This document shows positions 12,047-64,000 of a stretch of DNA of 64,000 bases, in pieces. This DNA comes from a virus (taxonomy: Duplodnaviria > Heunggongvirae > Uroviricota > Caudoviricetes): IMG/VR virus record IMGVR_UViG_2541047596_000003; one strand, given 5' to 3'. The notes beneath the pieces are model-generated. The model was not told the DNA's origin, searched no databases, and saw only the letters and a list, made by a program, of their open reading frames with translations. Within the stretch, counting starts at the first letter, position 1. Every line of letters starts with the position of its first letter. The translations under genes and the position numbers were made by a program.

Positions 12047-12238
12047 AATTTCTCCATGAAAAATATTTAACTCAAATAATTGAATATGAATCATGTAGTC
12101 ATAAATACTTCAAAATTATATTTTTAGCCCACTTAATTCATACAAAACTTCTTTAATAAACTGATTCAGGCCTCATGCATTATGCTTTTAACAAACTATC
12201 CTAACCTTCATAGTGTAAATCTTGATGTTCAATTTTAC

Positions 12239-12250
12239 AATACGCCAAGT
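12239..12250. repeat. 12-bp direct repeat AATACGCCAAGT, right copy
   Basis: Second perfect copy, 1779 bp from the first. Confidence 0.5.
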
Positions 12251-12434
12251 TTCCGTAAATCAATGAATGCGTCGGATTTTACAATAATTTAAAAGAGATG
12301 TTGAATAGTATCCATGAAGTGTAAGGTTAATATACCCAAAACGTCCGCCTCTGGCACAAAGCGGACAACCACGCTAGCTCTACCCTGTGCCACAAAATGT
12401 CAATTTGCATCTGAACTAATGCACTTTAATCTCG

Positions 12435-12857
12435 TCACTTCAATAAATACCGAACATCACCCTGATAAAACGACAATATGCGCTGCATAACTTCACTCTT
12501 CCGGCACTCGCGACAGATTATGTTCTGACGCCTGTCGTAGCGACGTATTTCTCCGTCAGGTAATGACCAGATAAGGTCCGGATCAACCGCAGATGGTTTC
12601 TTCAGCTTTGCCCTTGAGAGCTTTTTACGGGCATTTTGCCAGTCCTTACGCGCCTGTTCAGACGGGAATAACCCGTAACCAGAGTTGTATACATCGCCGC
12701 TGGCAACCAGCTCTCTTGCGAGAACGCTCATCAGATATCTTGTCGCATCTGTCTTGACTTCCAGTTGCCGTAACGTCTCGCGTCCACTCCGGCGTACTAG
12801 CTCAACAACCTGCCCTTTAATTTTTTCCCGCTCTTCCTGTGTAAAAACTTTTGCCAT
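12435..12857 (-). CDS. hypothetical phage protein
   Basis: 140 aa from ATG 12857 (MAKVFTQEER) with SD GGAGG; contains a CRECRK motif; ORF track start 12872 is TTG. Confidence 0.45.
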   Translation of the reverse strand: MAKVFTQEEREKIKGQVVELVRRSGRETLRQLEVKTDATRYLMSVLARELVASGDVYNSGYGLFPSEQARKDWQNARKKLSRAKLKKPSAVDPDLIWSLPDGEIRRYDRRQNIICRECRKSEVMQRILSFYQGDVRYLLK

Positions 12858-38717: not shown

Positions 38718-38966
38718 ATGGGGCGGCGCAATCACGGTGATTATGTGTACACGTTGAAACAGGCCGCCCGCCTCATCGGTTATCATGAACACGAATTTAT
38801 TGATTTGCTGATTGAGCGCGGGATACTGTACCAGGTCTGTTTAACGCTGTACCCGAAAGCGAAATACCTACATGAAAAGTTATTCATCATCATGACGGAT
38901 GAAAACCAGGTTAACCATTCATTCGTCACTGATAAGGGCGTTAATTATCTGCGTGATAACTTATAG
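38718..38966 (+). CDS. hypothetical small protein with possible HTH (moron cassette 1)
   Basis: 82 aa; YTLKQAARLIGYHEHEFIDLLIERGIL is helix-turn-helix-like. Confidence 0.4.
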   Translation: MGRRNHGDYVYTLKQAARLIGYHEHEFIDLLIERGILYQVCLTLYPKAKYLHEKLFIIMTDENQVNHSFVTDKGVNYLRDNL

Positions 38967-40013: not shown

Positions 40014-40268
40014 ATGAAACTGGTAGCGATTGACAGAAATCTGAAAGCACAGAAAAACGCACAGGACCGGATCATCAAGAAAGGTAAGGAATTACTTAAA
40101 GCCTTTCTGAGAAAAGAAGTTTACCCCAAAAAGTTACGCGACGGTTACGGATACAAAATGGATATCAATCTTGATTGGAGGCTGTTTAGCGAAGATTTGA
40201 AGGTTTGGTTAATTGTTGAGCACCATGCCTATAACAAGTTATGTGGCGTGAAAGGCACTCATAAGTGA
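40014..40268 (+). CDS. hypothetical basic protein (84 aa, moron cassette 2)
   Basis: ORF-track ORF with SD GGGGTGAG. Confidence 0.45.
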   Translation: MKLVAIDRNLKAQKNAQDRIIKKGKELLKAFLRKEVYPKKLRDGYGYKMDINLDWRLFSEDLKVWLIVEHHAYNKLCGVKGTHK

Positions 40269-42824: not shown

Positions 42825-43484
42825 ATGAAACGGTTAGCAAAAGTGGCAATGATTGCGGCGGTATTGGGTCTGGTTGGTTGCAATGAGGATAATGAAAAAG
42901 CGCCTATAGTGACCACTCAAGAACAACAAGCATTAGCAGAGAAAAATGCTAAATGGCTTGCAGAACAACAAGCAAAACAAGCCGCATATGAGGCACAGTT
43001 AGCAAAAGAAAAAGCTGGTAAACAGTGGCTTGTGGTCGAAAGAAAAGATGATATGCAGGACACAAAAAACGTGTTCCTTTTCGTGAAAGCAGAACATTTC
43101 AGCGGAAGTCTTGATGCTTTCCCTACACTGAAAGCACGGGATGAAAACAAACCTGTATTAACAATCGCTTGCCAGGGTAATAAAACAAAAATGTTCGTAG
43201 CATGGTCAAACCATGTAACTGACGCTGGGGACACTACTTATATTAACTACCGGATCGGCGATCACAAAGCTGTAGCTACTGAATGGAGTCGGTCAACTAA
43301 CTATAAAGCTCTTGGATTATGGAACGGCAAAAAAGCCATTCCAATGATTAAAAAACTGGTTAACGAAAAACAATTTATCATTGAAGTAGTGCCGGAAGCT
43401 GGCGACATTGAGAAAGCAGTGTTTAACATTGATGGTCTTTATAACCACATCGACAAAGTGAAAAACGCTTGCAACTGGAATTAA
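42825..43484 (+). CDS. lipoprotein (moron cassette 3)
   Basis: 219 aa; signal peptide MKRLAKVAMIAAVLGLVGC with lipobox; coiled-coil-like N-terminal region. Confidence 0.6.
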   Translation: MKRLAKVAMIAAVLGLVGCNEDNEKAPIVTTQEQQALAEKNAKWLAEQQAKQAAYEAQLAKEKAGKQWLVVERKDDMQDTKNVFLFVKAEHFSGSLDAFPTLKARDENKPVLTIACQGNKTKMFVAWSNHVTDAGDTTYINYRIGDHKAVATEWSRSTNYKALGLWNGKKAIPMIKKLVNEKQFIIEVVPEAGDIEKAVFNIDGLYNHIDKVKNACNWN

Positions 43485-47985: not shown

Positions 47986-48387
47986 TTATGCAACGCGGAC
48001 ACGTACAAAATCAGCCGCTTCAAGGGTTACAGTTTCCTGGCAGAAAGCGAAAACAGGTTCATCAGATGTAACCAATTTAAAGCCACCTTCACCAATGGTG
48101 ATGGCAGCGTCTTTGGTGTAAGCACCTTCAGGAAGCAGAATCGCAAATTCACGTCCTTCTTCTGCGTAGTCAGCAACCACGGAATGACCAACCGGGATCG
48201 CATCTTCAATGCCTAAACCTTCATGGTATGCCGGGTTAACAACATAAATACGTCCTGTGGTATCAGTTGCGGCAGCGAATTTACCAGACGCCATTTTTAC
48301 CGGAGTACCCGGCTTAAGTGCTGCGGCAGATACTGCTGTTTCAGTAACGGATTTGCCGTCAATATTTACACGACGAAAACGGGCCAT
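47986..48387 (-). CDS. putative head decoration / structural protein
   Basis: 133 aa between scaffold-like and capsid genes. Confidence 0.4.
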   Translation of the reverse strand: MARFRRVNIDGKSVTETAVSAAALKPGTPVKMASGKFAAATDTTGRIYVVNPAYHEGLGIEDAIPVGHSVVADYAEEGREFAILLPEGAYTKDAAITIGEGGFKLVTSDEPVFAFCQETVTLEAADFVRVRVA

Positions 48388-49684: not shown

Positions 49685-50616
49685 TCTTCGCCATATTTAG
49701 CGTGCGCAACTTTATAGTTTTCTTGCGCCCGATCTAATATTCGTTCGTTTAATATGTTACCGTCTTCGTCAACTAATACGGTAATCGTGCTACATTTGCA
49801 GTTAATTGAATTAGGGGATCTACTCCACCATTCGCGCTGCTCATCTATGGTGTATGTTTTACCGTGCCGCTGCGCGTGCGATAGCCTGGTAGTCGGTGAT
49901 AATGCCGAAATGTGCATTTGCATAGTGCGCAGATTAAATTCTTCTGTCGCCGCTTCTGCCTCATCCATACGCGCTGTGCGTAACGCTGTGCATATTTCAG
50001 TTCGAGCAATACGTTTACACCTGTATAGCGGTAATTGCGTCTCCTGATTCAATGTGCGCGCTATTTCCAGTGGGTTTAAACCACGGGCCATGCCTTCAGT
50101 TAATCGCCGGGCCATATCCTTTTTGATCTGTGCGGTCAGCCCGCGCATTTCCTCAAATACACGGGTACGGACCAGAGCAAGGCGTGTTCGGTAAGTTGTA
50201 CTGGATAACACGGCAGATACATCAGGGTAGGCGCTTGAGTACGTGACAGACTGGTTAGCAAGGTTGGCATGTTCCTGTGCCGTGCCGCGCTGATAGGCCA
50301 CCTTCACGTAATTCTGCCAGAACCAGAAGTTTTCCGGGTCTGTTAGCTCGAATATCTCATCAATCATGTCGCTGGCATCCTCCAGCATGTCGTGAAATTC
50401 ATCCATGTAAATCTGAAAGGTGTATTTCTTATTAACAGCCAGGCTATATTGTATCCTGTCCAATATGGCGATATATGGATCGGCTACTTTTTTCAGGCAG
50501 GATTTGAAACGCTTAATAGCGCCAGACCTCAACCTCCCTGTCATGGTCGGGTCTTCGGTGTTAGATGGCATTATCGCGGCTGGAGGTATTCGCCTGATTA
50601 TTTTCTTCACCTTCAT
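49675..50616 (-). CDS. head morphogenesis protein (minor head protein, Mu F / SPP1 gp7-like)
   Basis: 313 aa downstream of the portal gene. Confidence 0.55.
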   Translation of the reverse strand: MKVKKIIRRIPPAAIMPSNTEDPTMTGRLRSGAIKRFKSCLKKVADPYIAILDRIQYSLAVNKKYTFQIYMDEFHDMLEDASDMIDEIFELTDPENFWFWQNYVKVAYQRGTAQEHANLANQSVTYSSAYPDVSAVLSSTTYRTRLALVRTRVFEEMRGLTAQIKKDMARRLTEGMARGLNPLEIARTLNQETQLPLYRCKRIARTEICTALRTARMDEAEAATEEFNLRTMQMHISALSPTTRLSHAQRHGKTYTIDEQREWWSRSPNSINCKCSTITVLVDEDGNILNERILDRAQENYKVAHAKYGEDWE

Positions 50617-51955
50617 TGTCGTTTTCCTCGTCGTCCAGTTCTACTTCCTGCGTTGGCCCTTCATACCCGGCAGCCTCGCGGATCTCGTCACCGTCGAATA
50701 CTTGTTCACCTGTGGCGAGACATGCCTGATTGATTTGCGCCATTTTGTATGCCGCGTCGAGTAGCTCGGCTTTCGTCATGGCGTTAAGGTCGTCCCACAG
50801 TACCGACACGTCGACTGGCATACTGATAAGGCGGAGATCTGCCATCTTGCGGAATAGTTCCTCAAGCTCGCCTCCTATTTCCTCCCGGCGGGTCATACAG
50901 CGGTTATTGAAGTAGCGGAGGTCTTCGGTTGATGCACGCTCACCCTGCTGATTCCCAACCAGGATACGCGTTGGAATGTCGATACCAGCGGCGGCGGTTT
51001 GCAGGTTGACGTCATAGGTAGCTGATGGATCCGCCACGGCAGTAACCAGCGGGCTAACGGTTGCTCCCTGTAATGCCATCATCACATCATTACCTTTATT
51101 TATATCCTCTGCCGCTTCATTGAATTTTTCGCGTAGCTCTGCAACGTCGCAACCGTATGTTGCAGCCAGGGAACGAAAATCAATCTCTTTGTCGAATGAG
51201 ATAGCCAGTTGACGCGCTGCGTTTTTCAGAAAGGATTCACCGCTACCGCCTTCCACTTTCTCCAGCGATACAAAAGCGTTATAGGACGGCTCAAGGAAAG
51301 CGATGGCATCATCAGAATAATCACCGAAGATAAATATGCGATCTGGATGTATCTTTCTTGCTATGGTCTTACTGTTAATGCGCTCCTTGTATTCCCACCA
51401 TGTCGGCAGGCCATAGCTTTCACTTTCCGGATCTTCTTCGAAGTCCTTCGGTGTAAGAGCACCAGCCCATACAGGGGTAAATTTGGCAATGCCTACACCT
51501 TTCGTCACTGGCTGATCCCACGGCTGGTTATCCCTGACGTGAATTAACAGGCCAGCATAACGACCAATGAGGCGGCGGCGATCGCATTCAGCTATGACGC
51601 GCCAGAAACGATTATCAAATCGTTTTTTGATTTCTCTTTCCCACGGCGTTTCCTTTTTTGCTTTCTCGTCTTCCGTACCTTCGATCAGCGTTGGCCTGGT
51701 GCGCCAGCACGTAGTGATGATCTTCTCAATAGCACCGTGAGCGATACCACCGCGACGATACAGTTTGTATAAATCGGCATAGGTGATTTCTTCTTTGAAT
51801 CCGTATTCACTCCACGCAGCATCACGTTTTGCATCAATACCCATTGAGAATGGGTTAGCGGCTGCATAGCGGGCAAAGGCCGCCTGTCGTTGTGACAAGG
51901 CAGCATTAACCGCCAGTTCTACATTAGATGGCATAATGTTTACTCCTGAATACAT
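50561..51955 (-). CDS. portal protein
   Basis: 464 aa downstream of the large terminase, acidic C-terminal tail. Confidence 0.75.
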   Translation of the reverse strand: MYSGVNIMPSNVELAVNAALSQRQAAFARYAAANPFSMGIDAKRDAAWSEYGFKEEITYADLYKLYRRGGIAHGAIEKIITTCWRTRPTLIEGTEDEKAKKETPWEREIKKRFDNRFWRVIAECDRRRLIGRYAGLLIHVRDNQPWDQPVTKGVGIAKFTPVWAGALTPKDFEEDPESESYGLPTWWEYKERINSKTIARKIHPDRIFIFGDYSDDAIAFLEPSYNAFVSLEKVEGGSGESFLKNAARQLAISFDKEIDFRSLAATYGCDVAELREKFNEAAEDINKGNDVMMALQGATVSPLVTAVADPSATYDVNLQTAAAGIDIPTRILVGNQQGERASTEDLRYFNNRCMTRREEIGGELEELFRKMADLRLISMPVDVSVLWDDLNAMTKAELLDAAYKMAQINQACLATGEQVFDGDEIREAAGYEGPTQEVELDDEENDNEGEENNQANTSSRDNAI

Positions 51956-54839: not shown

Positions 54840-55382
54840 TCAGCCTCGTTTAAAACTCATAACACGCGGTACAAGCGCTTCTTTTGCTTTCGGCTTACGT
54901 TTACCTTTCTTCGCTGGCTTTTCTTCTTCCTTCGGCTGTTCTGCCTGTTCCAGCGCCTGATCGACGACTTCTGCCGCCTGCATTGCTGCAACCTGTGCTT
55001 CGTTTGATTCTGCTAGGATAGGGAAAAACGCATCGAAGATACGGCCTACCATGTAAGCGTAAGTCTCATTCGCCGGATGGGTAGGATCCGTGGTAGCCAC
55101 GACGCCTACATCACTTAAAACGTGGAATGTAGTGTGGGCGCATTCATGGACCAGCGTTCCCAACTCATTGTTGAATACTGCGATCACGTAGAAGTTACCA
55201 CCATTCTCGCCAGTGCAAGTAAGCGTTAATCCTCCAGCCAACTCGAAATCAGGTTCAATCGGAATTCCTGCCTTTTCGCAAAATTCATAGAACATCTCGC
55301 GGGTCGGGCAAAAGAAAACGGTTGTATGCTCAAAGAGTGGGATCTTAAATTGAGGCAATTTAATGCCTTTAGCCTTAGCCAT
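54840..55382 (-). CDS. HExxH-motif protein, putative zinc metallopeptidase
   Basis: 180 aa with SD AGGAGA; LVHECAHTTFH motif; Lys-rich C-terminal tail. Confidence 0.5.
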   Translation of the reverse strand: MAKAKGIKLPQFKIPLFEHTTVFFCPTREMFYEFCEKAGIPIEPDFELAGGLTLTCTGENGGNFYVIAVFNNELGTLVHECAHTTFHVLSDVGVVATTDPTHPANETYAYMVGRIFDAFFPILAESNEAQVAAMQAAEVVDQALEQAEQPKEEEKPAKKGKRKPKAKEALVPRVMSFKRG

Positions 55383-55661
55383 CAGAATAATCTCCTATTC
55401 TGAAAAATATAACCCCCGCAAAACTCGACACCGCAGGGAGTGAAAACAGTTATAAAACACTGAAAACGGCGCTTCATCAGTACCGTTTCCAGAATTTTAT
55501 AAAATTGGTGAATGGCGCTTTCTTCTACCCAGGTAGCGCCTGACCTGTTAATGGGACTGTTGATCCGGTATTACGTGTTTTTGACTATTCCGCCGTCGCT
55601 CGCGGGAAGGATTGGCCCGGTTATGGCTGGCTGACAGAAACGGCGACACGTCCACGCGCTG

Positions 55662-56150
55662 CTATTCTTTGCGTAAACACTGAGTTTTGATGTAGTCCTG
55701 TAGGCCAGTGATCTGTGCGTCTTTCTCTTTTAGTTGTTCTCTGAGGGATAGATAAGATTGTCTAGCAGTGGCATCAAGCTCGCAGGTGGCTCCATCAATG
55801 CGGCTGGCGGTCGCGGCGGGGTCGGACACTCGCACGGGTATTGCGTTGACGCGCAACCGGATAGTACCGTTATCAATGCCAGTGCGCAGATCGGCAATGT
55901 CAGATCTGATAGCTTTAATCTCATCGTGATACCTCTTATCAAGTTTTGACAGTTCGGCGTTTCGCTCCTTCATCTGCTGAATAGTGTTACTTGCCGTTTT
56001 CAGTGCGCCTTTCGTTACCGTGACTTCTTCCTGTAACCTTGCCGCCTCACCCTGGTAATAACATGTTACGGCGGTCAGTCCGGCAATAATGCAAACAACA
56101 GCGGCGAAAATTAACGCCTTCACCTTGTCCACGTTTCCCCCCATTCGCAA
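55662..56150 (-). CDS. Rz-like i-spanin
   Basis: 162 aa, N-terminal TM plus coiled coil, contains embedded lipoprotein ORF. Confidence 0.75.
55730..55924 (-). CDS. Rz1-like o-spanin lipoprotein (embedded)
   Basis: ATG 55924; [24 protein letters not shown] lipobox then proline-rich body; ORF track start 55942. Confidence 0.6.
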   Translation of the reverse strand: MRLKLSDLTLPICALALITVLSGCASTQYPCECPTPPRPPAALMEPPASLMPLLDNLIYPSENN

Positions 56151-56611
56151 ACGGCATATTCAACCTCGCGGCGGTTTACCAGGCCTTGCCACTTCTTACC
56201 GCCAGCGTATACCCAGCGTTTAAGCTGTGCGCACGCTTCTGATTTCTTGCCGTCATTGAGTAGTTTTAGTAAGGTTGATGTTTTGAAGTTGGTAGCGCCT
56301 ACGTTATAGGCGAATGAATAAAGTGCTGCGCGGGTAAAATCTGATATTTCGACTTTGATATATGGGTCAATCGCTTTTGCGGTCTTGTGTAGATCTTTAT
56401 TTAACAAAGCATCGCATTCTGATTGCGTGTAAGTCTTACCAAGCATGATGTCTTTTCCGACGTGTCCATAACATATCGTGTAAACACCGATGACATCTCT
56501 GTATGGCTTATACTCAACGCCTTCAAGATCTTTTATCATCACCGCCGCAATAGCGATCGCCCCACCAGCCGCCGCCGCAACAATCTTGTTTTTCAGCGAT
56601 TGGCTAATCAT
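56120..56611 (-). CDS. phage lysozyme / endolysin
   Basis: 163 aa paralogous to the Rac-type endolysin at 4445-4942. Confidence 0.85.
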
Positions 56612-56812
56612 TTACTTATTCCCCATTCGCGCGTCGTGTTCCTCTTGCGCCCGCTTGTTCTCCTGTGATTTGAAGTAATAATTAACGGCAAATGTGCCTA
56701 CGGTTGATAAGATACCAACGAAAACAGCGATGTCATTGATGGTTATCGCGCCGAAAAAAGCAGTTACGGCCCCAGTCACATACGCACACGCCTCCCGTAT
56801 TCTGTCGAACAT
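56612..56812 (-). CDS. holin
   Basis: 66 aa with two hydrophobic helices and charged C-terminus, directly upstream of the endolysin, SD GGAGG. Confidence 0.7.
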   Translation of the reverse strand: MFDRIREACAYVTGAVTAFFGAITINDIAVFVGILSTVGTFAVNYYFKSQENKRAQEEHDARMGNK

Positions 56813-56830
56813 AGATTTTCCTCCAACAAA

Positions 56831-56855
56831 GCAAAAACCCGGCGCGGGGCCGGGT
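56831..56855 (-). terminator. rho-independent terminator just upstream of the holin
   Basis: CCCGGC-GCGGG-GCCGGG followed on the minus transcript by UUUUUGCUUU. Confidence 0.5.
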
Positions 56856-56919
56856 AATTACAATTTCGCATTGTTAGGAAATATTTTAATCTGTTTGTTT
56901 GCGCTCTACAAATACGGCG

Positions 56920-57147
56920 TTAACGATAAGGTCCAAGCAAACGAACAAGCCATTCTTTGTATTTGACGGCAACGTGTTTTGGTGCAAAATATCCTTGCAC
57001 TTCCTTACCGCCTCGCCACTCCCTTCTAAATTCGCACTCGTTTTGATACTCCTTTCCGCTTTTACTATCCAGCCAGCAAGCAGGTGAGTAACCTTTTTCA
57101 CTTCCGAACCGATGCCATATTGATGACAGCAAAACCCTTTCTTCCAT
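56920..57147 (-). CDS. hypothetical small protein upstream of the lysis cassette
   Basis: 75 aa ORF at the position where an antiterminator would be expected; no recognisable Q features. Confidence 0.3.
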   Translation of the reverse strand: MEERVLLSSIWHRFGSEKGYSPACWLDSKSGKEYQNECEFRREWRGGKEVQGYFAPKHVAVKYKEWLVRLLGPYR

Positions 57148-57342
57148 ATTACCCCCAACAAATACGGCTTTACTGCTTTCTGTATATCAGGCCATTATCA
57201 AGCAATGTTTGCATGTGTTCGCGATCCATGCCGCTTGATTCCCAATGTGGATCGTCATCAGGTCTTATCATCACCTTATTACCTTTAAGTAAATAGACGA
57301 TGTTAAATACCTTATGCAAATAGATGCCGTCTTCGATCTCGT

Positions 57343-57525
57343 TCACAGGTCGCTAACCTTCACCACGTCGCCGTTATAAAGCATGATTTCAATTATTTCC
57401 CGCGTCATATCCATGAATGGCTCTTTCCACTCGCCACCATCGATACTGATACGAATATCATTACCCTCCACGCGGTAAAACATTTCATCAATGAGGTTCA
57501 CGGCGTATATACCATCTTCAATCAT
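57343..57525 (-). CDS. hypothetical early-region protein
   Basis: 60 aa, coupled array. Confidence 0.4.
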   Translation of the reverse strand: MIEDGIYAVNLIDEMFYRVEGNDIRISIDGGEWKEPFMDMTREIIEIMLYNGDVVKVSDL

Positions 57526-57750
57526 TTAATCGCCCTCTTTAAACATCCTGAACTTAATATCGCCAATCTTGCTCCAATGTCCGTGATTAAACATCGTGAT
57601 AACTTCTTTCGCTGTCACAGGTAAAACCGTTTCATGCCACGGTTCAAACTGGCGTGATCGCATCATTACGTGTTCACCTTCAAGGCGATAATAAGCGCGT
57701 GACACCAATGACTGATAAACGCCGTCATATTGATGGTCGCTATTTCCCAT
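57526..57750 (-). CDS. hypothetical early-region protein
   Basis: 74 aa, coupled array. Confidence 0.4.
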   Translation of the reverse strand: MGNSDHQYDGVYQSLVSRAYYRLEGEHVMMRSRQFEPWHETVLPVTAKEVITMFNHGHWSKIGDIKFRMFKEGD

Positions 57751-57940
57751 TTTTACGCTCCTTAATGGCTCGCTTAATCTGCACTAGCGTTGCATCGAAG
57801 AAAGCGATAAACACCGCTACAGGCCAGAAAGGAATCTCAAGGCCACCACGATCGAGATCGTTATATTTGATGAAACAAGACATCAGGATAGCGCCAGCGA
57901 TATAAAGGAGAAATACAGCAAAGATAAGACATTCAATCAT
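57740..57940 (-). CDS. small membrane protein (two TM helices)
   Basis: 66 aa, MIECLIFAVFLLYIAGAILMSCF... and PFWPVAVFIAFF... Confidence 0.4.
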   Translation of the reverse strand: MIECLIFAVFLLYIAGAILMSCFIKYNDLDRGGLEIPFWPVAVFIAFFDATLVQIKRAIKERKNGK

Positions 57941-58075
57941 CCTCTTTCTCCCCGCCTAAATGTTGATATATTTTTTCAGCATTTTCCCCGCGCTCAAAAC
58001 AATAATGCTCAAACATGCGCCAGTGTTCACTAAGAAACATAACAATAAACTTGTTTACGTATTCGTCATCCATCG

Positions 58076-58387
58076 TTAATCATCCTCTTCATCGTCTTCT
58101 TGTTCAGCTAGGAAATCATCGACAGAACAGTAAGTAACTGGCGGGATATATTCGAAGTCATCCGTATCAAGATCGAGCGTCCTGCTGTCGCCGTCGTCGT
58201 CAATCGTATTCATTCCTAACTCACCGAAAGGGCCGTACCCAATGTGGCCCAGGTATTCGCAACCAATCGTAAACCCAGGGTATTCGCCTTTACACCGGAT
58301 TTTGTAAGGTTTATTTGATGCGCTCAATTTCCGACCCTCCACTTTCTGCTTCAGTGATTTTGTATTCTGCCGCCAGTTCAGCGCCAA
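58076..58387 (-). CDS. acidic small protein (start uncertain)
   Basis: C-terminal ~45 aa are ~45% Asp/Glu; track start overlaps upstream gene by 77 nt, internal ATG at 58213 possible. Confidence 0.4.
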   Translation of the reverse strand: MALNWRQNTKSLKQKVEGRKLSASNKPYKIRCKGEYPGFTIGCEYLGHIGYGPFGELGMNTIDDDGDSRTLDLDTDDFEYIPPVTYCSVDDFLAEQEDDEEDD

Positions 58388-58634
58388 GCAATTCCACTTC
58401 CATATTAGCGATACCCTGGAACATCAGATAGGCAAAAACTAGGCTTTTAATTCTATCCGGGTCTTCAAGATGGTCTGCATTAAAAGGCGGTTCCGATACG
58501 TGGAAGCATTTAACATGCGCATCGTCTTCAGTGGCTACACGGAAACATGCGCCAGGTTGCCCGGCGAATTCCCCCAATCTTTCTTCGTTCGGTAAAGTAC
58601 CACGGAAAACTTTAACGCTGATAAATTTAGTCAT
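58311..58634 (-). CDS. hypothetical early-region protein
   Basis: 107 aa ORF. Confidence 0.45.
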   Translation of the reverse strand: MTKFISVKVFRGTLPNEERLGEFAGQPGACFRVATEDDAHVKCFHVSEPPFNADHLEDPDRIKSLVFAYLMFQGIANMEVELLGAELAAEYKITEAESGGSEIERIK

Positions 58635-58637
58635 TGT

Positions 58638-58892
58638 TTATTCTCCTTCGTAAAGAGTTGCCACCAGTTCGGCATCTGTTAGCGTGTTATAATCTGTATA
58701 AAACCCGCAACGCATAAGTGAAGAAAGGCCAGCCACTTTGCACCACATAGGGGTCGATTCGCTCAAATATTCATTCTCCCTTTTTTCGCTGTATTCCAGT
58801 TCATAAAACCGACTATTGTTAACACTCTCAATTACACGGCTGTATGTGCCATCAAGCCTACTAACTCCGCGCCATAGTCTGATCACAACCAT
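58638..58892 (-). CDS. hypothetical early-region protein
   Basis: 84 aa ORF. Confidence 0.4.
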   Translation of the reverse strand: MVVIRLWRGVSRLDGTYSRVIESVNNSRFYELEYSEKRENEYLSESTPMWCKVAGLSSLMRCGFYTDYNTLTDAELVATLYEGE

Positions 58893-58931
58893 AATTTCTA
58901 CTCCGTTTGATGGGGCTATTCGGCCCCGTGT

Positions 58932-59072
58932 TTATTCTTCTTCTCCTCCTCTAAATCCTAAGCACTCCGCGTATTCGTCAATGCTTAATGCTTCTTCACC
59001 TGGTGCCAATACTTCAAAGTAGCGGGCGTATAGTTCGAAAACCCAGGCCGGATATTTAGCGTTAGCGTTCAT
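58932..59072 (-). CDS. hypothetical small protein (46 aa)
   Basis: Hand-translated MNANAKYPAWVFELYARYFEVLAPGEEALSIDEYAECLGFRGGEEE with SD AAGGGGG; below track cutoff. Confidence 0.3.
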   Translation of the reverse strand: MNANAKYPAWVFELYARYFEVLAPGEEALSIDEYAECLGFRGGEEE

Positions 59073-59081
59073 GGTTCCCCC

Positions 59082-59360
59082 TTATGCCATGCGTGCAAAT
59101 TCAAGTGATTTGCATTCGTAGTCTTCCTCTGCCTGTTCGATGACTGCCATCATCATTTCGTTTGCGTTGTTGAATGCGTTGCTTTGTGCGAACTTGTCGG
59201 CTCCACCTTCTTCTTCGAACTCCGCGTTGTTTGCTGCAATGTAGTGATATTCGATGTTGTTCAGGTAAGGGCTTGCAGCGTGTGCTGGGTCTTCTTTCTC
59301 CACCATCTCCCAAAATGCGTTTAAGCGAGATTCGACTTCTTTGTTAATCCAGCGTTTCAT
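59082..59360 (-). CDS. hypothetical early-region protein
   Basis: 92 aa ORF. Confidence 0.45.
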   Translation of the reverse strand: MKRWINKEVESRLNAFWEMVEKEDPAHAASPYLNNIEYHYIAANNAEFEEEGGADKFAQSNAFNNANEMMMAVIEQAEEDYECKSLEFARMA

Positions 59361-59441
59361 TTTTCTACCCTCCGCATCGTTCTCTCTTCAGCTTCTTTAT
59401 AACAAAATGGCACTTCCGAAACAATGCCATTTCGTAAACCT

Positions 59442-59457
59442 TGTGATACAGATCACA
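59442..59457. promoter_or_regulatory. perfect CRP-type palindrome TGTGATACAGATCACA
   Basis: TGTGA-N6-TCACA in the 98-bp gap between early genes; adjacent AAATGGCA/TGCCATTT inverted repeat at 59404-59433. Confidence 0.4.
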
Positions 59458-59458
59458 T

Positions 59459-59683
59459 TTACGTTTCTTCCGTAAAAGTAACCTTCATCGCCCCATCCGA
59501 ACTACGGACAACATAACGACCAATACCGCCTAGCGGCCCTGCATACCATAAGTGACCGTAAGTGTCAGTCACGACGATAAACGGAAATTTAGGAGACAAT
59601 CCCATCGGTTTTTCAGCCGTATACTGTGCGCCTTCTTCAAAACAGCCTAATTTCGATTCGTTACACGTTAAAATCATTTTCAT
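59459..59683 (-). CDS. small early protein, paralogue family member D
   Basis: 74 aa; shares F-E-E-G..Y...TD...W motif with the three upstream ORFs. Confidence 0.45.
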   Translation of the reverse strand: MKMILTCNESKLGCFEEGAQYTAEKPMGLSPKFPFIVVTDTYGHLWYAGPLGGIGRYVVRSSDGAMKVTFTEET

Positions 59684-59919
59684 ACCCCTACATACGAAAA
59701 CGCAGCAAAAGCACCACCACCAGCACGCGCATAAACAAGTGCCGTGCCATACCCCATCTTATAAAATCGCCATAACTGACCCTGGTCGTCAGTAATGGCA
59801 TGAATATATTCCTGATCCTTTGCGTCAACCAATGCCGCGCCAACCTCGTAGATCTTGCCATTCTTAAAAAACGCGCTGCATCGTGAGTATGTGCACTGGT
59901 ATCTATGTTTCCGATTCAT
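59680..59919 (-). CDS. small early protein, paralogue family member C
   Basis: 79 aa ...FFKNGKIYEVG...ITDDQGQLWRFY... Confidence 0.45.
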   Translation of the reverse strand: MNRKHRYQCTYSRCSAFFKNGKIYEVGAALVDAKDQEYIHAITDDQGQLWRFYKMGYGTALVYARAGGGAFAAFSYVGV

Positions 59920-59929
59920 AGCACCTCAC

Positions 59930-60187
59930 TTATTCCGGTTTACTGCCTTCGCGGGCGCAAAACTCCGCGATCTCACGGAAATCATGCACTATGCGATAAA
60001 TATACAAACCAGCGGCGTTATTGATATAGCTAACATAAGCGAAATAAACTTTATCATCATCGCCAGTTATCGCCATTGCACCATCACCGCCCGGTGCGCC
60101 GTGAAGTTGAACGCCGCAATAGATCTTCCCTTCTTCAAATATATTGCGGTCGCGCGTCTGTATTAGCTCAAAATATAAATGTTTCAT
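59930..60187 (-). CDS. small early protein, paralogue family member B
   Basis: 85 aa ...FEEGKIYCGV...ITGDDDKVYFAY... Confidence 0.45.
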   Translation of the reverse strand: MKHLYFELIQTRDRNIFEEGKIYCGVQLHGAPGGDGAMAITGDDDKVYFAYVSYINNAAGLYIYRIVHDFREIAEFCAREGSKPE

Positions 60188-60196
60188 GCTTAACCC

Positions 60197-60412
60197 TCAC
60201 CACTTAACAAAACGCGCCATTACGCGATTATCAAAACTACCCTTAACAACCCCTTTCGCATGATCGCCGTAAAATTGCCACGCATCGCCGTCATTATCTT
60301 TTACATAATGAATACCGCCCGCGCCGCGCTTGCACCCGTTAAGAAGGTCAACGCTATATAATTCCCCAACAGTAAAGCACACAGTGTCAGAATAAACGCA
60401 CCTTGCAAACAT
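60197..60412 (-). CDS. small early protein, paralogue family member A
   Basis: 71 aa ...FTVGELYSVD...VKDNDGDAWQFY... Confidence 0.45.
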   Translation of the reverse strand: MFARCVYSDTVCFTVGELYSVDLLNGCKRGAGGIHYVKDNDGDAWQFYGDHAKGVVKGSFDNRVMARFVKW

Positions 60413-60414
60413 AA

Positions 60415-60666
60415 TCAGAAAACCCCTTTATAATCGACCGTGTATTTTACCACCAATTTCCACTCGCTATAGTTTTCCATGTCGCGCGGCTGCCAGCCTT
60501 TCATGCCTACAGCACTACGCGCAGCGTGGCGGCGATAATCGTCATTAAGATCGGCAATGCACCACGGTTGAAGGAAGAACATATAATTCGCTTCGTTAAC
60601 CAGAATAGCCATCATCCGTCCAGTGGCCTTATCTTTCGCCCTGAAATAACTTACCTTGATTTTCAT
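60415..60666 (-). CDS. hypothetical early-region protein
   Basis: 83 aa ORF. Confidence 0.4.
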   Translation of the reverse strand: MKIKVSYFRAKDKATGRMMAILVNEANYMFFLQPWCIADLNDDYRRHAARSAVGMKGWQPRDMENYSEWKLVVKYTVDYKGVF

Positions 60667-60878
60667 TTTAATACCTCGTCGATCAGCATTTCTTCTTCCA
60701 GGTTAGCCGGACGTTTACGGAATATCCCGGCAAAAACCAGGTCATCAAGTAGGTCTTTGCGTTTAAATAGCCACTCTTTCATTATTACCCCGTCATCGCT
60801 GCGATATACGACGCCGTTTTTCAAAAAATAAAAAGTGCGGGTATTTGTTTGAAGGTATAAATCTTCGTAGACGTCCAT
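60663..60878 (-). CDS. hypothetical early-region protein
   Basis: 71 aa ORF, ATGA coupling. Confidence 0.4.
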   Translation of the reverse strand: MDVYEDLYLQTNTRTFYFLKNGVVYRSDDGVIMKEWLFKRKDLLDDLVFAGIFRKRPANLEEEMLIDEVLK

Positions 60879-60882
60879 GATA

Positions 60883-61110
60883 TTAACCCTCGACTACTTG
60901 CAAGCCGCGCCCCTTATCGCCTACGAAGTCGCCCAGGCTAAACGTATATGACCACGCCGGGTTAATGTAGTAATCATCAGCACCGTGAGCGATAAGGTCT
61001 TTACCCAAAATGACGCAGGTCACATCATCAGAATGAACAACGTCTACCGTTTCCCCTACCACGCGTTTTAATGATGGGTAGCCGTGATCGTGCAAGAATT
61101 TAACTTTCAT
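60883..61110 (-). CDS. hypothetical early-region protein
   Basis: 75 aa ORF. Confidence 0.4.
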   Translation of the reverse strand: MKVKFLHDHGYPSLKRVVGETVDVVHSDDVTCVILGKDLIAHGADDYYINPAWSYTFSLGDFVGDKGRGLQVVEG

Positions 61111-61394
61111 ATTTCTTTCCCTTTATAAGTAACAGCATCAGCGATCAACAATACCGCCAGCAATTCACCGTCATGTAACGGGTCTGGAATAGCAAAAAAT
61201 ATGTCGCTGTTTTTGTCCGGCACTACTACGCGCATATTTCCCTGTTTGTCTTCATGCACGAACCACGGCTTTTCGTGTGGCTCAAACATGCCGAAAAGTA
61301 ATTTAAGATCTATTTCTTCACCCTTCGTGAATAACGACACATCAGTTGTAGTGATAACTAACGCTTTCTGATCTGCTGTTTTCTTCGCTCTCAT
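61107..61394 (-). CDS. hypothetical early-region protein
   Basis: 95 aa ORF, ATGA coupling. Confidence 0.4.
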   Translation of the reverse strand: MRAKKTADQKALVITTTDVSLFTKGEEIDLKLLFGMFEPHEKPWFVHEDKQGNMRVVVPDKNSDIFFAIPDPLHDGELLAVLLIADAVTYKGKEI

Positions 61395-61624
61395 TCCTCT
61401 GTCTCCCAGCGGTCTATGCTGATTAAAAAGTCCCGGATAGCGTGTCGCTCGTCGCGCGTCGGTTTACGCTTCCGGTAAATTTTGAAATCGAACCATTCTT
61501 TTTCTTGTTCGAAGTCCAGATCGTAAGCAAGCGCCTCGATATATCCGCAGTCGTGATACTGGTAAGCCACGCCAGCACGAACAAAAAAGCGGGTTTTATC
61601 CCGCTTGTGTTCATAGATACGCAT
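61391..61624 (-). CDS. hypothetical early-region protein
   Basis: 77 aa ORF. Confidence 0.4.
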   Translation of the reverse strand: MRIYEHKRDKTRFFVRAGVAYQYHDCGYIEALAYDLDFEQEKEWFDFKIYRKRKPTRDERHAIRDFLISIDRWETEE

Positions 61625-61634
61625 ATTTGCCCCA

Positions 61635-61865
61635 CTATGCAGTCGTGTAACTATCTACCAGCTTTTCATCCTTCATTCTGGCAAGCTGGGAGATATTCAT
61701 CGTGTAGCCTTCATCAGAGAAAAGCCACTCCGCAGCCTTGCGACGAAAAGCTATATCATCATGGTTGCGCGTCCATGTAGCGATCACCACGCGCTTTCCA
61801 TCAGTGGCAAACATGGTTAATTCGTTATCAACAACGTCGATAGCCTGCCAGATTTTTAGTTCCAT
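61635..61865 (-). CDS. hypothetical early-region protein
   Basis: 76 aa ORF. Confidence 0.4.
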   Translation of the reverse strand: MELKIWQAIDVVDNELTMFATDGKRVVIATWTRNHDDIAFRRKAAEWLFSDEGYTMNISQLARMKDEKLVDSYTTA

Positions 61866-62221
61866 GATTTATCACCGTAGATCTTGAATAGTTCACACGC
61901 TTTCTGATCTTCAAATATATTCATATGCAGGTCACGCAGACGGCGCATTGTTCGGAATCGCGGTCTAAACTCCTGGCTCCGTTTAATGTATTTGCCGCCA
62001 ATTGAATAAATATGCCCGTATGAATACCATCTATTCCCTACCCATATTTCATATTCTTTGCCTTCGTAATTGAATTTTATCGTTAGCTCGTCCACTTCAA
62101 CTATTAACCCTTTATCAATGATGCCATTAAGCATTTCGTCCCATTCTTTCAGGAATGGATGCTGATAAAAACCGAAAAGCGTATTTGCAGCGTGGCAAAG
62201 GTAATCAATGATTATTTGCAT
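61856..62221 (-). CDS. hypothetical early-region protein
   Basis: 121 aa ORF. Confidence 0.45.
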   Translation of the reverse strand: MQIIIDYLCHAANTLFGFYQHPFLKEWDEMLNGIIDKGLIVEVDELTIKFNYEGKEYEIWVGNRWYSYGHIYSIGGKYIKRSQEFRPRFRTMRRLRDLHMNIFEDQKACELFKIYGDKSWN

Positions 62222-62441
62222 ATTCCCACCTTCTCAATATGTAGTAAATGTTATCGTAAGCTATATTATCCGCATCTTCCTGTGTTATATGTCTGGCATC
62301 AAAAAAGAAATCAGCGTCGTGCCATACATGAAAAAGAAGTCGCGCGAATTGTCTGCGGCGGCGCTTACTGCGTGATAGTTCGTTAAATTCTATTAACGCT
62401 TTATCATATGCTCTTATCATGCGCTTACGGTTACTTTTCAT
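62205..62441 (-). CDS. small basic early protein, tandem paralogue 2
   Basis: 78 aa MKSNRKRMIRAYDKALIEFNEL..., paralogous to 62446-62646. Confidence 0.45.
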   Translation of the reverse strand: MKSNRKRMIRAYDKALIEFNELSRSKRRRRQFARLLFHVWHDADFFFDARHITQEDADNIAYDNIYYILRRWEYANNH

Positions 62442-62445
62442 ATTG

Positions 62446-62646
62446 TCACCACATCATATAGTAAACGTTATCATCTGCTAATTCGTCTGCGTCTCTTTGG
62501 CAGTCGATTGTCGCATCATCTTCGTGCCATTCTTTAGCAAATAAACGCGCCCATTTACGACGCTCACGTTTATTGTGCCGCAGGTCACTAAAAACCATTA
62601 AAGCCTTGTCGTAAGCTCTTACCAGGCGTTTCATTCTACTTTTCAT
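62446..62646 (-). CDS. small basic early protein, tandem paralogue 1
   Basis: 66 aa MKSRMKRLVRAYDKALMVFSDL... Confidence 0.45.
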   Translation of the reverse strand: MKSRMKRLVRAYDKALMVFSDLRHNKRERRKWARLFAKEWHEDDATIDCQRDADELADDNVYYMMW

Positions 62647-62852
62647 TTTTCACCCTTCCTTAATTCCTTAATTTCAATATTGCGTAACCGGACGTCGCAC
62701 GGCGTTTCAGATTTACCAGTAAGCGCCAGCGTCAGGTTTTCAGGTGTCGTGTAAAGAATTATCTCTTTACCAGTGCTAAATTTAATTTCTATGCGGATCT
62801 CGTTTTCATCACCGCACAATACGCGGCTAATTGACAGGCCAGCTTTTTTCAT
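62643..62852 (-). CDS. hypothetical early-region protein
   Basis: 69 aa ORF. Confidence 0.4.
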   Translation of the reverse strand: MKKAGLSISRVLCGDENEIRIEIKFSTGKEIILYTTPENLTLALTGKSETPCDVRLRNIEIKELRKGEK

Positions 62853-62865
62853 TGCTCAACAAACC

Positions 62866-63165
62866 TTAAAATCTGTATTGCCAGTAAATATCACACTTTA
62901 TTGCAAATACCTTCACCGGATCAGGGCCGAATAGTGGATGTTGAATCAACTTGATTTCGTACCCCATGTAAGGCAATACGATAATCCGGTCTTTCTCATC
63001 ATCCGATGGATAACCCCATTTAATGATTAATCTTGTGTACTCCCGCCCCTCCAGGCGTTTACGCCAGTATTCATTGTAAAGCCGGTATTCTTCCACCTTC
63101 TTTCCCGCCCGGATGGCGTGGAAGTATTCACCTTTTAAATTCAAATGTAAGTGTTTATTTGCCAT
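62866..63165 (-). CDS. possible ASCH/DUF3850-like protein
   Basis: 99 aa; ...LKGEYFHAIRAGKKVEEYRL... resembles the ASCH-like N-terminal motif; weak. Confidence 0.35.
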   Translation of the reverse strand: MANKHLHLNLKGEYFHAIRAGKKVEEYRLYNEYWRKRLEGREYTRLIIKWGYPSDDEKDRIIVLPYMGYEIKLIQHPLFGPDPVKVFAIKCDIYWQYRF

Positions 63166-63424
63166 CGCTATGATCCTGTAAACAGTCGTTATAGCCTTCG
63201 ATGTATCCGGTTAATCCTGTGTTACTTACTGACCAATCAGCCGAACGGCGCTTGATGGCCTTGTCCATAGTCATCTCGTCACCTGGCCCGCCTGGCTCGA
63301 TGTATTTTCTTAAATCCCTTACTATCCACGCCCTTAATTGTTGCGTATCACTGCACACACGCGCCGTTAATGTCAGATTATTAACCAGCTTTGCGAATAG
63401 ATGTTCTTTTAATTTAGGCTTCAT
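63155..63424 (-). CDS. hypothetical early-region protein
   Basis: 89 aa ORF. Confidence 0.4.
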   Translation of the reverse strand: MKPKLKEHLFAKLVNNLTLTARVCSDTQQLRAWIVRDLRKYIEPGGPGDEMTMDKAIKRRSADWSVSNTGLTGYIEGYNDCLQDHSDGK

Positions 63425-63614
63425 CCTTCACCTCGCGACGATAGATTTCTACTGGCTTAACCGGAATAGCGTTAAAATCCCCTTCATCCAGTGCGGCAAT
63501 AAACGTTAGCGCCAACCGTGCTTCAACACCGCTTAAATACTTGCACCATGCCTCACCGTTATAATCTTCAAAAAGAATAATCACTTTTTTCATGTTTATC
63601 TCTTGTTGTTTCAT
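63414..63614 (-). CDS. hypothetical early-region protein
   Basis: 66 aa ORF. Confidence 0.4.
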   Translation of the reverse strand: MKQQEINMKKVIILFEDYNGEAWCKYLSGVEARLALTFIAALDEGDFNAIPVKPVEIYRREVKDEA

Positions 63615-64000
63615 TATTCACCCCGTGTCACTCGTTTAATTTCGTTATCAGCCCGCGCCTCTTCTTTGAACAATTCAGTAATGGCGTCTTCATAGAAAGC
63701 ACGGTATTTCTTCCACCACGTTGATCGGCTTACCGGAAATACAAGCTGATTAACCGCACGCCGGACAAGATCTACAGGGAAACGCGAGTACCCGCGCCCG
63801 CCGCAGTGCTGGCACGTTTTGAATACTGGCATTTCCGCCGCTTCGCTGGCTGCTTTATCCGGTACTTCGCCACGCCCCTTGCACCTCTGGCAATGGTTTT
63901 TAACGTAGCCTTTGCCGTTGCACCGCGAGCAAACTGTCGATGTGTATTCACAATATGGATTCGGTAAAAGCCCGTTACCTCCGCACTTAGGGCAAACCTT
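63614..64000 (-). CDS. DnaJ-type zinc-finger (CxxCxGxG x4) protein, 5' end outside window
   Basis: Frame is open from the window edge down through the track ORF 63614-63832; four motifs CPKCGGNG, CSRCNGKG, CQRCKGRG, CQHCGGRG. Confidence 0.55.
   Translation of the reverse strand, partial: KVCPKCGGNGLLPNPYCEYTSTVCSRCNGKGYVKNHCQRCKGRGEVPDKAASEAAEMPVFKTCQHCGGRGYSRFPVDLVRRAVNQLVFPVSRSTWWKKYRAFYEDAITELFKEEARADNEIKRVTRGE

Follow-up and report, generated by a model that had tools for sequence, protein, structure and literature searches.

A large array of small genes between the antiterminator gene Q and a predicted late promoter in an mEp021-like prophage of Escherichia coli M1/5

In the canonical Q cassette of lambda and P22/ST104, the antiterminator gene Q is followed at once by the late promoter pR', a -10-like sigma-dependent pause element and a terminator. 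In lambda, ST104 and Shiga toxin (Stx) phages the position between Q and the lysis cassette belongs to the late operon. The Q-to-S moron region of Stx and other lambdoid phages, a hot spot for variable cargo, stands behind a pR'/tR' placed directly after Q and is therefore late. Small, non-essential co-oriented genes with overlapping stops and starts, variable content and mostly unknown functions are found upstream of Q, in the lambda nin and lambdoid exo-xis arrays of the N-dependent delayed-early operons, and the assumed role of their products is to bind host proteins. Here we characterise an array of this general appearance in a 64,000-nucleotide stretch of Caudoviricetes DNA (IMG/VR record IMGVR_UViG_2541047596_000003; hereafter the window, to which all positions refer), which derives from a prophage of Escherichia coli M1/5 and in which 28 small genes separate Q from a predicted late promoter just upstream of the holin gene.

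As a phage accessory region the array is of an ordinary kind; what is unusual is its position. As with nin, ninG and rusA are near neighbours (immediately upstream in M1/5) and an N-like antiterminator, Gp17, would serve the operon; one gene family, that of g25, is common to the M1/5 array and the exo-xis array of Stx2a phage F451. The array differs from nin and exo-xis in its place downstream of Q, in its much greater size (28 genes, 6.7 kb), in a strict slot order across its phage group and in holding three tandem paralogue sets, and we infer its time of expression from the predicted promoter. With the Stx-phage Q-to-S region it shares its map position, but the pR'-like block lies at the holin end, with the cargo upstream of it. 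The Q-to-promoter distance, ~45 bp in lambda and ST104, would accordingly be 6.7 kb in M1/5 and 2.0-6.8 kb in its relatives. The genes are already deposited as hypothetical proteins and the phage group is published; what is new here is the position of the array relative to the predicted late promoter, which would place Q 2-7 kb from its site of action, together with a slot-ordered pan-array, corrected gene calls, an internal junction and a Gp54-like fold in one structural model.

Setting, extent and coding status of the array

The source chromosome is that of E. coli M1/5 (NZ_CP053296), which the region of the array matches at essentially 100%. Four single-base differences from NZ_CP053296.1 were counted across 37343-64000 (at 48063, 58848, 59415 and 62124), three of them inside the array and one of these in the loop of a mid-array hairpin described below. 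The nearest cultured phages are mEp044, mEp010, mEp554, mEp013, mEp021 and MagusPhagus, which align to between half and two thirds of the region at ~85% identity. The M1/5 prophage belongs with the mEpimmI (mEp021) phages, a recently described group of Nus-dependent, non-lambdoid temperate coliphages (Negrete-Mendez et al. 2025, PMC11893012), and shares their gene order, repressor, Gp17 and Q. The accessory genes of these phages were reported to be concentrated in variable regions; the same study contains no analysis of the Q-to-holin interval, its paralogues or the late promoter (PMC11893012).

Read along the minus strand, the RefSeq annotation begins with the integrase, a plus-strand replication block and a LexA-like repressor, continues with a long minus-strand operon (Gp17-like protein, erf, ssb, methylases, ninG, rusA and an 'antitermination protein'), and then passes through the run of small genes to holin, lysozyme, Rz, terminase, head and tail genes. 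The array is thus preceded by ninG-rusA-Q and followed directly by the lysis cassette. The integrase, repressor and replication genes are found 10-20 kb past the window edge, and none occurs in the interval itself, in agreement with the original prediction, which had been made from the letters of the window.

The upstream boundary is the C-terminal part of Q (63614-64000, minus strand), a 242-amino-acid (aa) protein that runs off the window. By sequence it is a full-length homologue of the lambda Q family: RefSeq names it 'antitermination protein', it matches PF03589 (E = 1.5e-32), and it is 35% identical to lambda Q over the full length (E = 1e-47). A window-edge open reading frame (ORF) at 63614-63832, at first counted as the last small gene, is the C-terminus of this protein. 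A scan of genome contigs with Q returned no loci. The downstream boundary is the holin gene (56612-56812, minus strand; RefSeq annotation), which corresponds to mEp021 gp46 and is the first late gene.

Between these boundaries, at 56920-63614, lie 28 genes of 46-121 codons, numbered here g00 to g27 from holin to Q, all on the minus strand and 96.6% coding in sum. The array of at least 27 small co-oriented genes that had been claimed is therefore real. As to its limits, the ORF listing does hold an unbroken minus-strand chain from 57170 to 63614 (sizes 45-121 aa), but the array starts two genes nearer the holin than had been proposed, with g01 (57170-57346) and g00 (56920-57147). Packing is tight: with the corrected start of g06, 24 of the 27 junctions overlap or leave at most 15 nt (13 overlaps, 11 spacings of 0-15 nt), and the three larger ones measure 22, 39 and 98 nt. 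Fifteen of the 28 proteins have an isoelectric point (pI) below 6. Phage-only PHROG families, all of unknown function, were matched by 24 of the 27 proteins scanned.

Small ORFs of this kind might be largely gene-calling artefacts or decaying, functionless remnants, a suspicion that gains something from the lack of any known domain and from six genes that the RefSeq annotation of M1/5 (made with the Prokaryotic Genome Annotation Pipeline, PGAP) leaves out (56920-57147, 58638-58892, 59680-59919, 60197-60412, 60663-60878 and 62205-62441). When orthologues from 43 non-identical related loci, fetched with the Q protein, were compared, the ratio of nonsynonymous to synonymous substitution rates (dN/dS) was 0.03-0.37 for all 28 genes, including these six. 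All 28 are under purifying selection and are real genes, conserved as coding in related phages, where their homologues are all 'hypothetical' rather than housekeeping proteins. This selection analysis effectively refutes the artefact explanation, which we consider extremely improbable; the high coding density on a single strand, the PHROG membership of most genes and a confident structural model of g02 (predicted local distance difference test, pLDDT, 95.5) also speak against it.

The predicted late promoter and the mid-array junction

A predicted Q-dependent late regulatory block of ~85 bp occupies 56828-56911 (minus strand), just upstream of the holin. It would comprise a -35 element TTGTAG (56911-56906), a -10 element TAAAAT (56888-56883), a pause-element-like AACAAT (56875-56870) and the t5 hairpin with its T-run (hairpin at 56855-56837). 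The resulting layout (TTGTAG-17-TAAAAT-7-AACAAT, 14 nt, a strong hairpin with a T-run, then the holin ribosome-binding site) is the same as that of lambda pR' (TTGACT-17-TAAATT-6-AACGAT) and of the late promoter after gene 23 of ST104 (TTGCAA-17-TATCAT-6-AACAGT plus a terminator), whose Q is the closest outside the mEpimmI group. The hairpin is terminator t5 of mEp021, listed as experimentally demonstrated (PMC11893012). By our own count the predicted terminated leader would be ~45 nt long, against 194 nt for the lambda 6S RNA.

Several features set this block apart from the rest of the locus. Among 29 sequence variants, the ~95 nt leading up to the holin start codon hardly change, regardless of the gene on their upstream side. 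A composite signature (a -10-like box, 6-7 nt, AACRRT and a perfect-stem terminator within 90 nt) occurs once in the 64-kb window, both strands considered, and once in the 46.6-kb prophage locus, compared with an average of 0.015 in shuffled sequences. Inside the promoter, the part of the spacer next to the -10 element (AACAAAYAGAT) is invariant and the -35 element is variable, as might be expected if a Q-binding element stood where it does in lambda; the spacer of the M1/5 block, AACAAACAGAT, is a putative Q-binding site. A generic promoter scan found no excess of sigma-70-like sites in the region over shuffled sequence.

At the other end of the array, a late promoter inside or just after Q was considered and rejected. 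There is no intergenic space after Q, whose stop codon overlaps the next start, and the gene that follows varies between relatives. Synonymous sites at the 3' end of Q show no unusual conservation, and the composite signature is absent there. With the pR'-like block at the holin end, the array would therefore lie between Q and its target.

We propose that a Q-dependent late promoter, a sigma-dependent pause element and t5 are all contained in the invariant ~85-bp block upstream of the holin, and that Q and the array share a transcript, with the array forming the distal end of the rightward delayed-early operon. The polymerase would be modified by Gp17, and this modification would also carry it across a hairpin terminator in the middle of the array. 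The delayed-early operon of mEp021 depends on the N-like antiterminator Gp17 (PMC11893012), and the Gp17 homologue of the M1/5 prophage is 93% identical. On these sequence grounds we consider it reasonably probable that the array stands between Q and its target promoter and consists of delayed-early genes co-transcribed with Q, and attach less confidence to the idea that their products bind host proteins. The label 'early region' given to this stretch in the original prediction holds in part: being downstream of ninG-rusA-Q, it is not a classical immunity and replication region, but the late promoter predicted at the holin end makes early timing probable.

The only sizeable intergenic gap (59361-59458, minus strand) separates g11 from g10. 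It contains a perfect CRP consensus, TGTGATCTGTATCACA, at 59457-59442, the only one in the window, where 0.05 would be expected. A hairpin at ~59435-59402 (free energy, dG, -16.7 to -19.9 kcal/mol) is followed by TTTTGTT, and a promoter-like TTGTTT (59424-59419)-17-TATAAA (59401-59396) would place the centre of the CRP site at ~-61.5, as counted on the sequence. Of the 44 loci, 33 have the hairpin and 15 the perfect CRP site, and the genes on either side differ. As a lead, we regard the gap as a candidate internal terminator crossed by antiterminated polymerase, possibly combined with a CRP class-I promoter for the distal eleven genes. A further hairpin, in the 39-nt gap between g09 and g08, was discarded as a terminator because it has no T-run on the coding strand. 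An Rfam search of 55000-64000 gave no match.

Gene families, variation among relatives and predicted structures

Across all 44 relatives the Q-to-holin interval is 2.0-6.8 kb long and holds 8-28 genes, mEp021 standing at the lower end (2.0 kb, 8 genes); the M1/5 array is the fullest (largest) in the sample. Clustering of the ORFs from the 44 loci gave 42 families in strictly collinear order, corresponding to ~29 recurrent slots of which each phage holds a subset. The slots of g15, g16, g17, g19, g20 and g21 are near-universal. The endpoints of M1/5 segments that are absent elsewhere fall mostly at gene boundaries, and the array therefore changes by whole-gene cassettes. Two database proteins, P0034 and P0036, are natural chimeras in which the N-terminus of g14 is joined, at a shared D(N/D)DGD motif, to the C-terminus of g06 (P0034) or g01 (P0036); recombination between different array genes, that is, deletion, therefore also occurs. 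In sum, content changes by gain and loss of whole-gene cassettes at junctions, by tandem duplication and by occasional in-gene fusions.

Tandem duplication is visible in three sets of neighbouring genes. The pair g22/g23 (62205-62646), for which a shared N-terminus had been noted, is 49% identical (E = 3.5e-22), and both proteins begin with MKS(N/R)xKR(M/L)(I/V)RAYDKAL. The four consecutive genes g11-g14 (59459-60412) had been proposed to share a longer motif; they have in common F-x-x-G-x-x-Y, with F, G and Y invariant in a four-way alignment, and (T/K)D-x-x-G. Profile-profile comparison with hhalign relates g14 to g12 with a probability of 95% (E = 5e-8), g13 to g12 with 52% (E = 1.5e-4) and g14 to g11 with 25% (E = 7.5e-4), these being ranks 1, 3 and 5 of 351 family pairs. 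By these sequence comparisons, g12 and g14 are solid members, g13 is a probable one and g11 a marginal one, and support for this proposal thus differs across the set. The third set, g01/g02/g03, all matching phrog_15318, had been overlooked. A fifth member of the g11-g14 family was sought in g06, which by eye carries GFTIGCEY and IDDDGD, and was rejected: the cleaned family profile scored it at -0.1 bits, below shuffled controls, and hhalign gave 1.7%.

Measured as clusters at 90% identity among 5.8 billion proteins, the g11-g14 family comprises 45 clusters, the g01-g03 family 112 and the g22/g23 family 36. All three are narrow, being found in E. coli or its phages only, and carry no domain or name. 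Copies per phage vary from 0 to 5, 0 to 3 and 0 to 2, respectively.

The Q-proximal part of the array opens with g27 (63414-63614, 66 aa; phrog_35000, dN/dS 0.18, 38 loci), the start of which overlaps the Q stop by 1 nt, followed by g26 (63155-63424, 89 aa; phrog_29262, dN/dS 0.18) and the ASCH-like g25 (62866-63165, 99 aa; phrog_625, dN/dS 0.08). The match of g25 to Pfam ASCH reaches 17 bits, below the cut-off of 21.2, and covers the N-terminal 26 residues only; RefSeq names its orthologues ASCH. Homologues of g25 occur in 332 phages, and their presence in the exo-xis region of F451, a pL-operon array, fits early-type cargo. Those of g24 (62643-62852, 69 aa; phrog_1222, dN/dS 0.08) occur in 228 phages, lying a few kb from the left end in Stx phages. 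Next come the paralogues g23 (62446-62646, 66 aa; phrog_8758, dN/dS 0.08) and g22 (62205-62441, 78 aa; dN/dS 0.33), the latter one of the six genes without RefSeq annotation.

The six core genes are grouped in the middle, interrupted by g18 (61107-61394, 95 aa; phrog_33175, dN/dS 0.10). The longest, g21 (61856-62221, 121 aa; phrog_16975, dN/dS 0.09), is present in 42 of 43 loci; none of the 205 clusters (at 50% identity) that make up its broad family bears a name. It is followed by g20 (61635-61865, 76 aa), equivalent to mEp021 gp38, g19 (61391-61624, 77 aa; dN/dS 0.05, 43 of 43 loci), equivalent to gp39, and g17 (60883-61110, 75 aa; phrog_5009, dN/dS 0.10), equivalent to gp40. The RefSeq-unannotated g16 (60663-60878, 71 aa; dN/dS 0.04, 43 loci) is 93% identical to mEp021 gp41, which an earlier assignment had wrongly paired with g15; the counterpart of g15 (60415-60666, 83 aa; phrog_38609, dN/dS 0.09) is gp42, annotated too short in that phage. 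Beyond the core lies the g11-g14 set: g14 (60197-60412, 71 aa; phrog_31142, dN/dS 0.07; not in RefSeq), which belongs with g12 to the family modelled as a Gp54-like beta-barrel (see below), then g13 (59930-60187, 85 aa), placed by its hhalign match to g12, g12 itself (59680-59919, 79 aa; not in RefSeq), and g11 (59459-59683, 74 aa; dN/dS 0.12), with the invariant F, G and Y.

On the holin side of the mid-array gap, g10 (59082-59360, 92 aa; phrog_7287) is acidic (pI 4.4) and has the lowest dN/dS, 0.03. It precedes g09 (58932-59072, 46 aa; phrog_22232, dN/dS 0.08), the RefSeq-unannotated g08 (58638-58892, 84 aa; phrog_32200 at E = 2.5e-56, dN/dS 0.35) and g07 (58311-58634, 107 aa; phrog_23107, dN/dS 0.37, 39 loci). 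The start of g06 (58076-58327, 83 aa), a protein with a very acidic C-terminus, is a conserved TTG at 58327; RefSeq has only the last 45 aa. The upstream peptide is kept in all relatives, stop codons appear just before it, and the phrog_25234 profile is likewise 83 aa long. A 97-nt 'gap' in front of the shorter gene call, considered as a regulatory region, is coding sequence of this extension.

Towards the holin follow g05 (57933-58073, 46 aa; phrog_15754, dN/dS 0.27) and g04 (57740-57940, 66 aa; phrog_10061, dN/dS 0.22). With two hydrophobic stretches and a maximum hydropathy of 2.59, g04 is probably a small membrane protein, to judge from its sequence; it lies five genes upstream of the holin and is found in 36 relatives. 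The third paralogue set consists of g03 (57526-57750, 74 aa; phrog_15318 at E = 2e-5), g02 (57343-57525, 60 aa) and g01 (58 aa, GTG start), equivalent to mEp021 gp45. The last gene, g00 (75 aa; dN/dS 0.16), occurs in about 9-10 relatives, among which it shows third-position changes. An 11-nt direct repeat, GCCGTATTTGT, stands after the stop codons of both g01 (57168-57158) and g00 (56918-56908), so that its two copies bracket this unannotated gene like an inserted cassette.

No protein of the array scored above threshold in Pfam or NCBIfam, and none matched an annotated PHROG. Two family profiles and six individual proteins, searched against PDB sequences, had no significant match. Structures were predicted for two proteins, g02 and g12. 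The g12 model adopts a rare six-stranded small beta-barrel fold, as in Gp54 of phage Bas11 (PDB 9axb), and its neighbours in BFVD are small uncharacterised proteins of T1-like phages (template modelling, TM, scores 0.6-0.79), which we take to be of the same family as Bas11 (BASEL collection). Gp54 is a non-essential protein without an assigned function; an immune sensor binds it directly, and it is thereby a direct trigger of the CapRel-SJ46 defence. The likeness has its limits: sequence identity is 9%, and the M1/5 phage is temperate and has four diverged tandem copies. With this fold, the sole hint of an anti-defence role in the array, as a guide, it is a reasonable guess that the four-copy family consists of small host- or defence-interacting proteins. 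For the array at large, whose products are small, mostly cytoplasmic and often acidic, we infer more weakly, by analogy with nin and exo-xis, that they probably bind host proteins and in this way serve takeover, counter-defence or the modulation of lysogeny.

Some features elsewhere in the window were recorded in passing. A 180-aa hypothetical protein encoded between the spanin and terminase genes (54840-55382, minus strand) contains an HExxH motif (VHECAHT) that suggests a small metallopeptidase-like protein. The 457-aa gene at 50561-51934 (minus strand) is called 'anti-CBASS protein Acb1 family protein' by PGAP; by synteny with mEp021 it occupies the portal position, and the name looks doubtful. 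Plus-strand inserts among the minus-strand tail genes, at 38718-38966, 40014-40268 and 42825-43484, encode a KilAC antirepressor-domain fragment, a ParE-like toxin and a TagO-like protein and look like typical morons.

Timing, function and significance of the array

Several observations weigh against our reading of the array as delayed-early, host-directed genes placed between Q and its promoter. The assignment of promoter, pause element and Q-binding site depends throughout on analogy with known sequences, and of the two variants of the block one has a weak -35 element (3/6) and the other has none. Late expression would be in keeping with the mass-spectrometric annotation of the g16 homologue, mEp021 gp41 (12222-12470), as 'virion structural protein'; SSB, the single-stranded DNA-binding protein, carries a structural flag in that record too, so that gp41 may have been detected for its abundance and not because it is incorporated into virions. 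With six genes belonging to the core of the phage group, the array does not consist of dispensable cargo alone. No match to known anti-defence, host-takeover or defence families was found in Pfam, NCBIfam, PHROG or PDB sequences, which are general libraries, none dedicated to anti-defence, and the comparison with anti-defence families suggested in the original prediction thus came out negative. Finally, the Gp54 link is one of model to structure at the low identity given above, and a profile of 32 sequences did not recover 9axb at E <=5.

Two other accounts of the array's expression have to be set against these same data. The array could be the first part of the late operon, driven by a Q-dependent promoter at or inside the 3' end of Q, with t5 as an internal terminator read through by Q-modified polymerase. 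Such an arrangement would agree with lambda and ST104, where no more than ~45 bp lie between the Q stop and the beginning of the late promoter, and with the annotation of the g16 homologue as virion-associated. It is hard to reconcile with the Q stop overlapping the start of a gene that differs between relatives, with the ordinary conservation of the synonymous sites at the 3' end of Q, and with a -10/pause/terminator signature that is found nowhere else in window or prophage than in the only invariant non-coding block, that before the holin; we judge it unlikely.

The array, or part of it (especially g10-g00), might instead hold lysogenic-conversion genes, transcribed from the internal CRP promoter, stopped by t5 and serving the host in superinfection exclusion, defence or physiology. 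A unique perfect CRP consensus at -61.5 to TTGTTT-17-TATAAA, a junction that is conserved despite different neighbours, the closure of the unit by t5 and the membrane-protein look of g04 would all suit this account. It has to contend with the presence of both CRP half-sites in only 15 of the 44 relatives, with zero PADLOC matches among the 28 proteins, with translational coupling of these genes to the proximal half and with promoter-like matches that are no commoner than in shuffled sequence, and it seems to us about as doubtful as placement in the late operon. Delayed-early transcription together with Q, from upstream of a late promoter at the holin end, remains the reading we prefer. A bolder extension of it would have Q moved 2-7 kb from its promoter by a slot-ordered, rapidly reshuffled counter-defence and host-interaction island expressed just before the late genes, in which the tandem Gp54-like barrels are diversified binders (inhibitors or decoys) of sensors of the CapRel kind and the mid-array CRP promoter senses host physiology; as a whole we hold this scenario to be speculative and rather improbable.

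Anti-restriction, anti-CRISPR and other proteins that interfere with the host have come from phage arrays of small early genes, and the present array is tractable, with 28 conserved genes, a presence/absence series across at least 44 relatives, and mEp phages that can be cultivated on E. coli K-12. If neither the separation of Q from its promoter nor the link to Gp54 holds, what is left is an ordinary stretch of phage genes whose function is unknown. If the Gp54-like fold reflects a true link, it would supply a concrete hypothesis for this class of proteins, together with natural variants to set against CapRel-type sensors. Separation of Q from its promoter by several kb, if true, would bear on how close to its site of action Q must be made.

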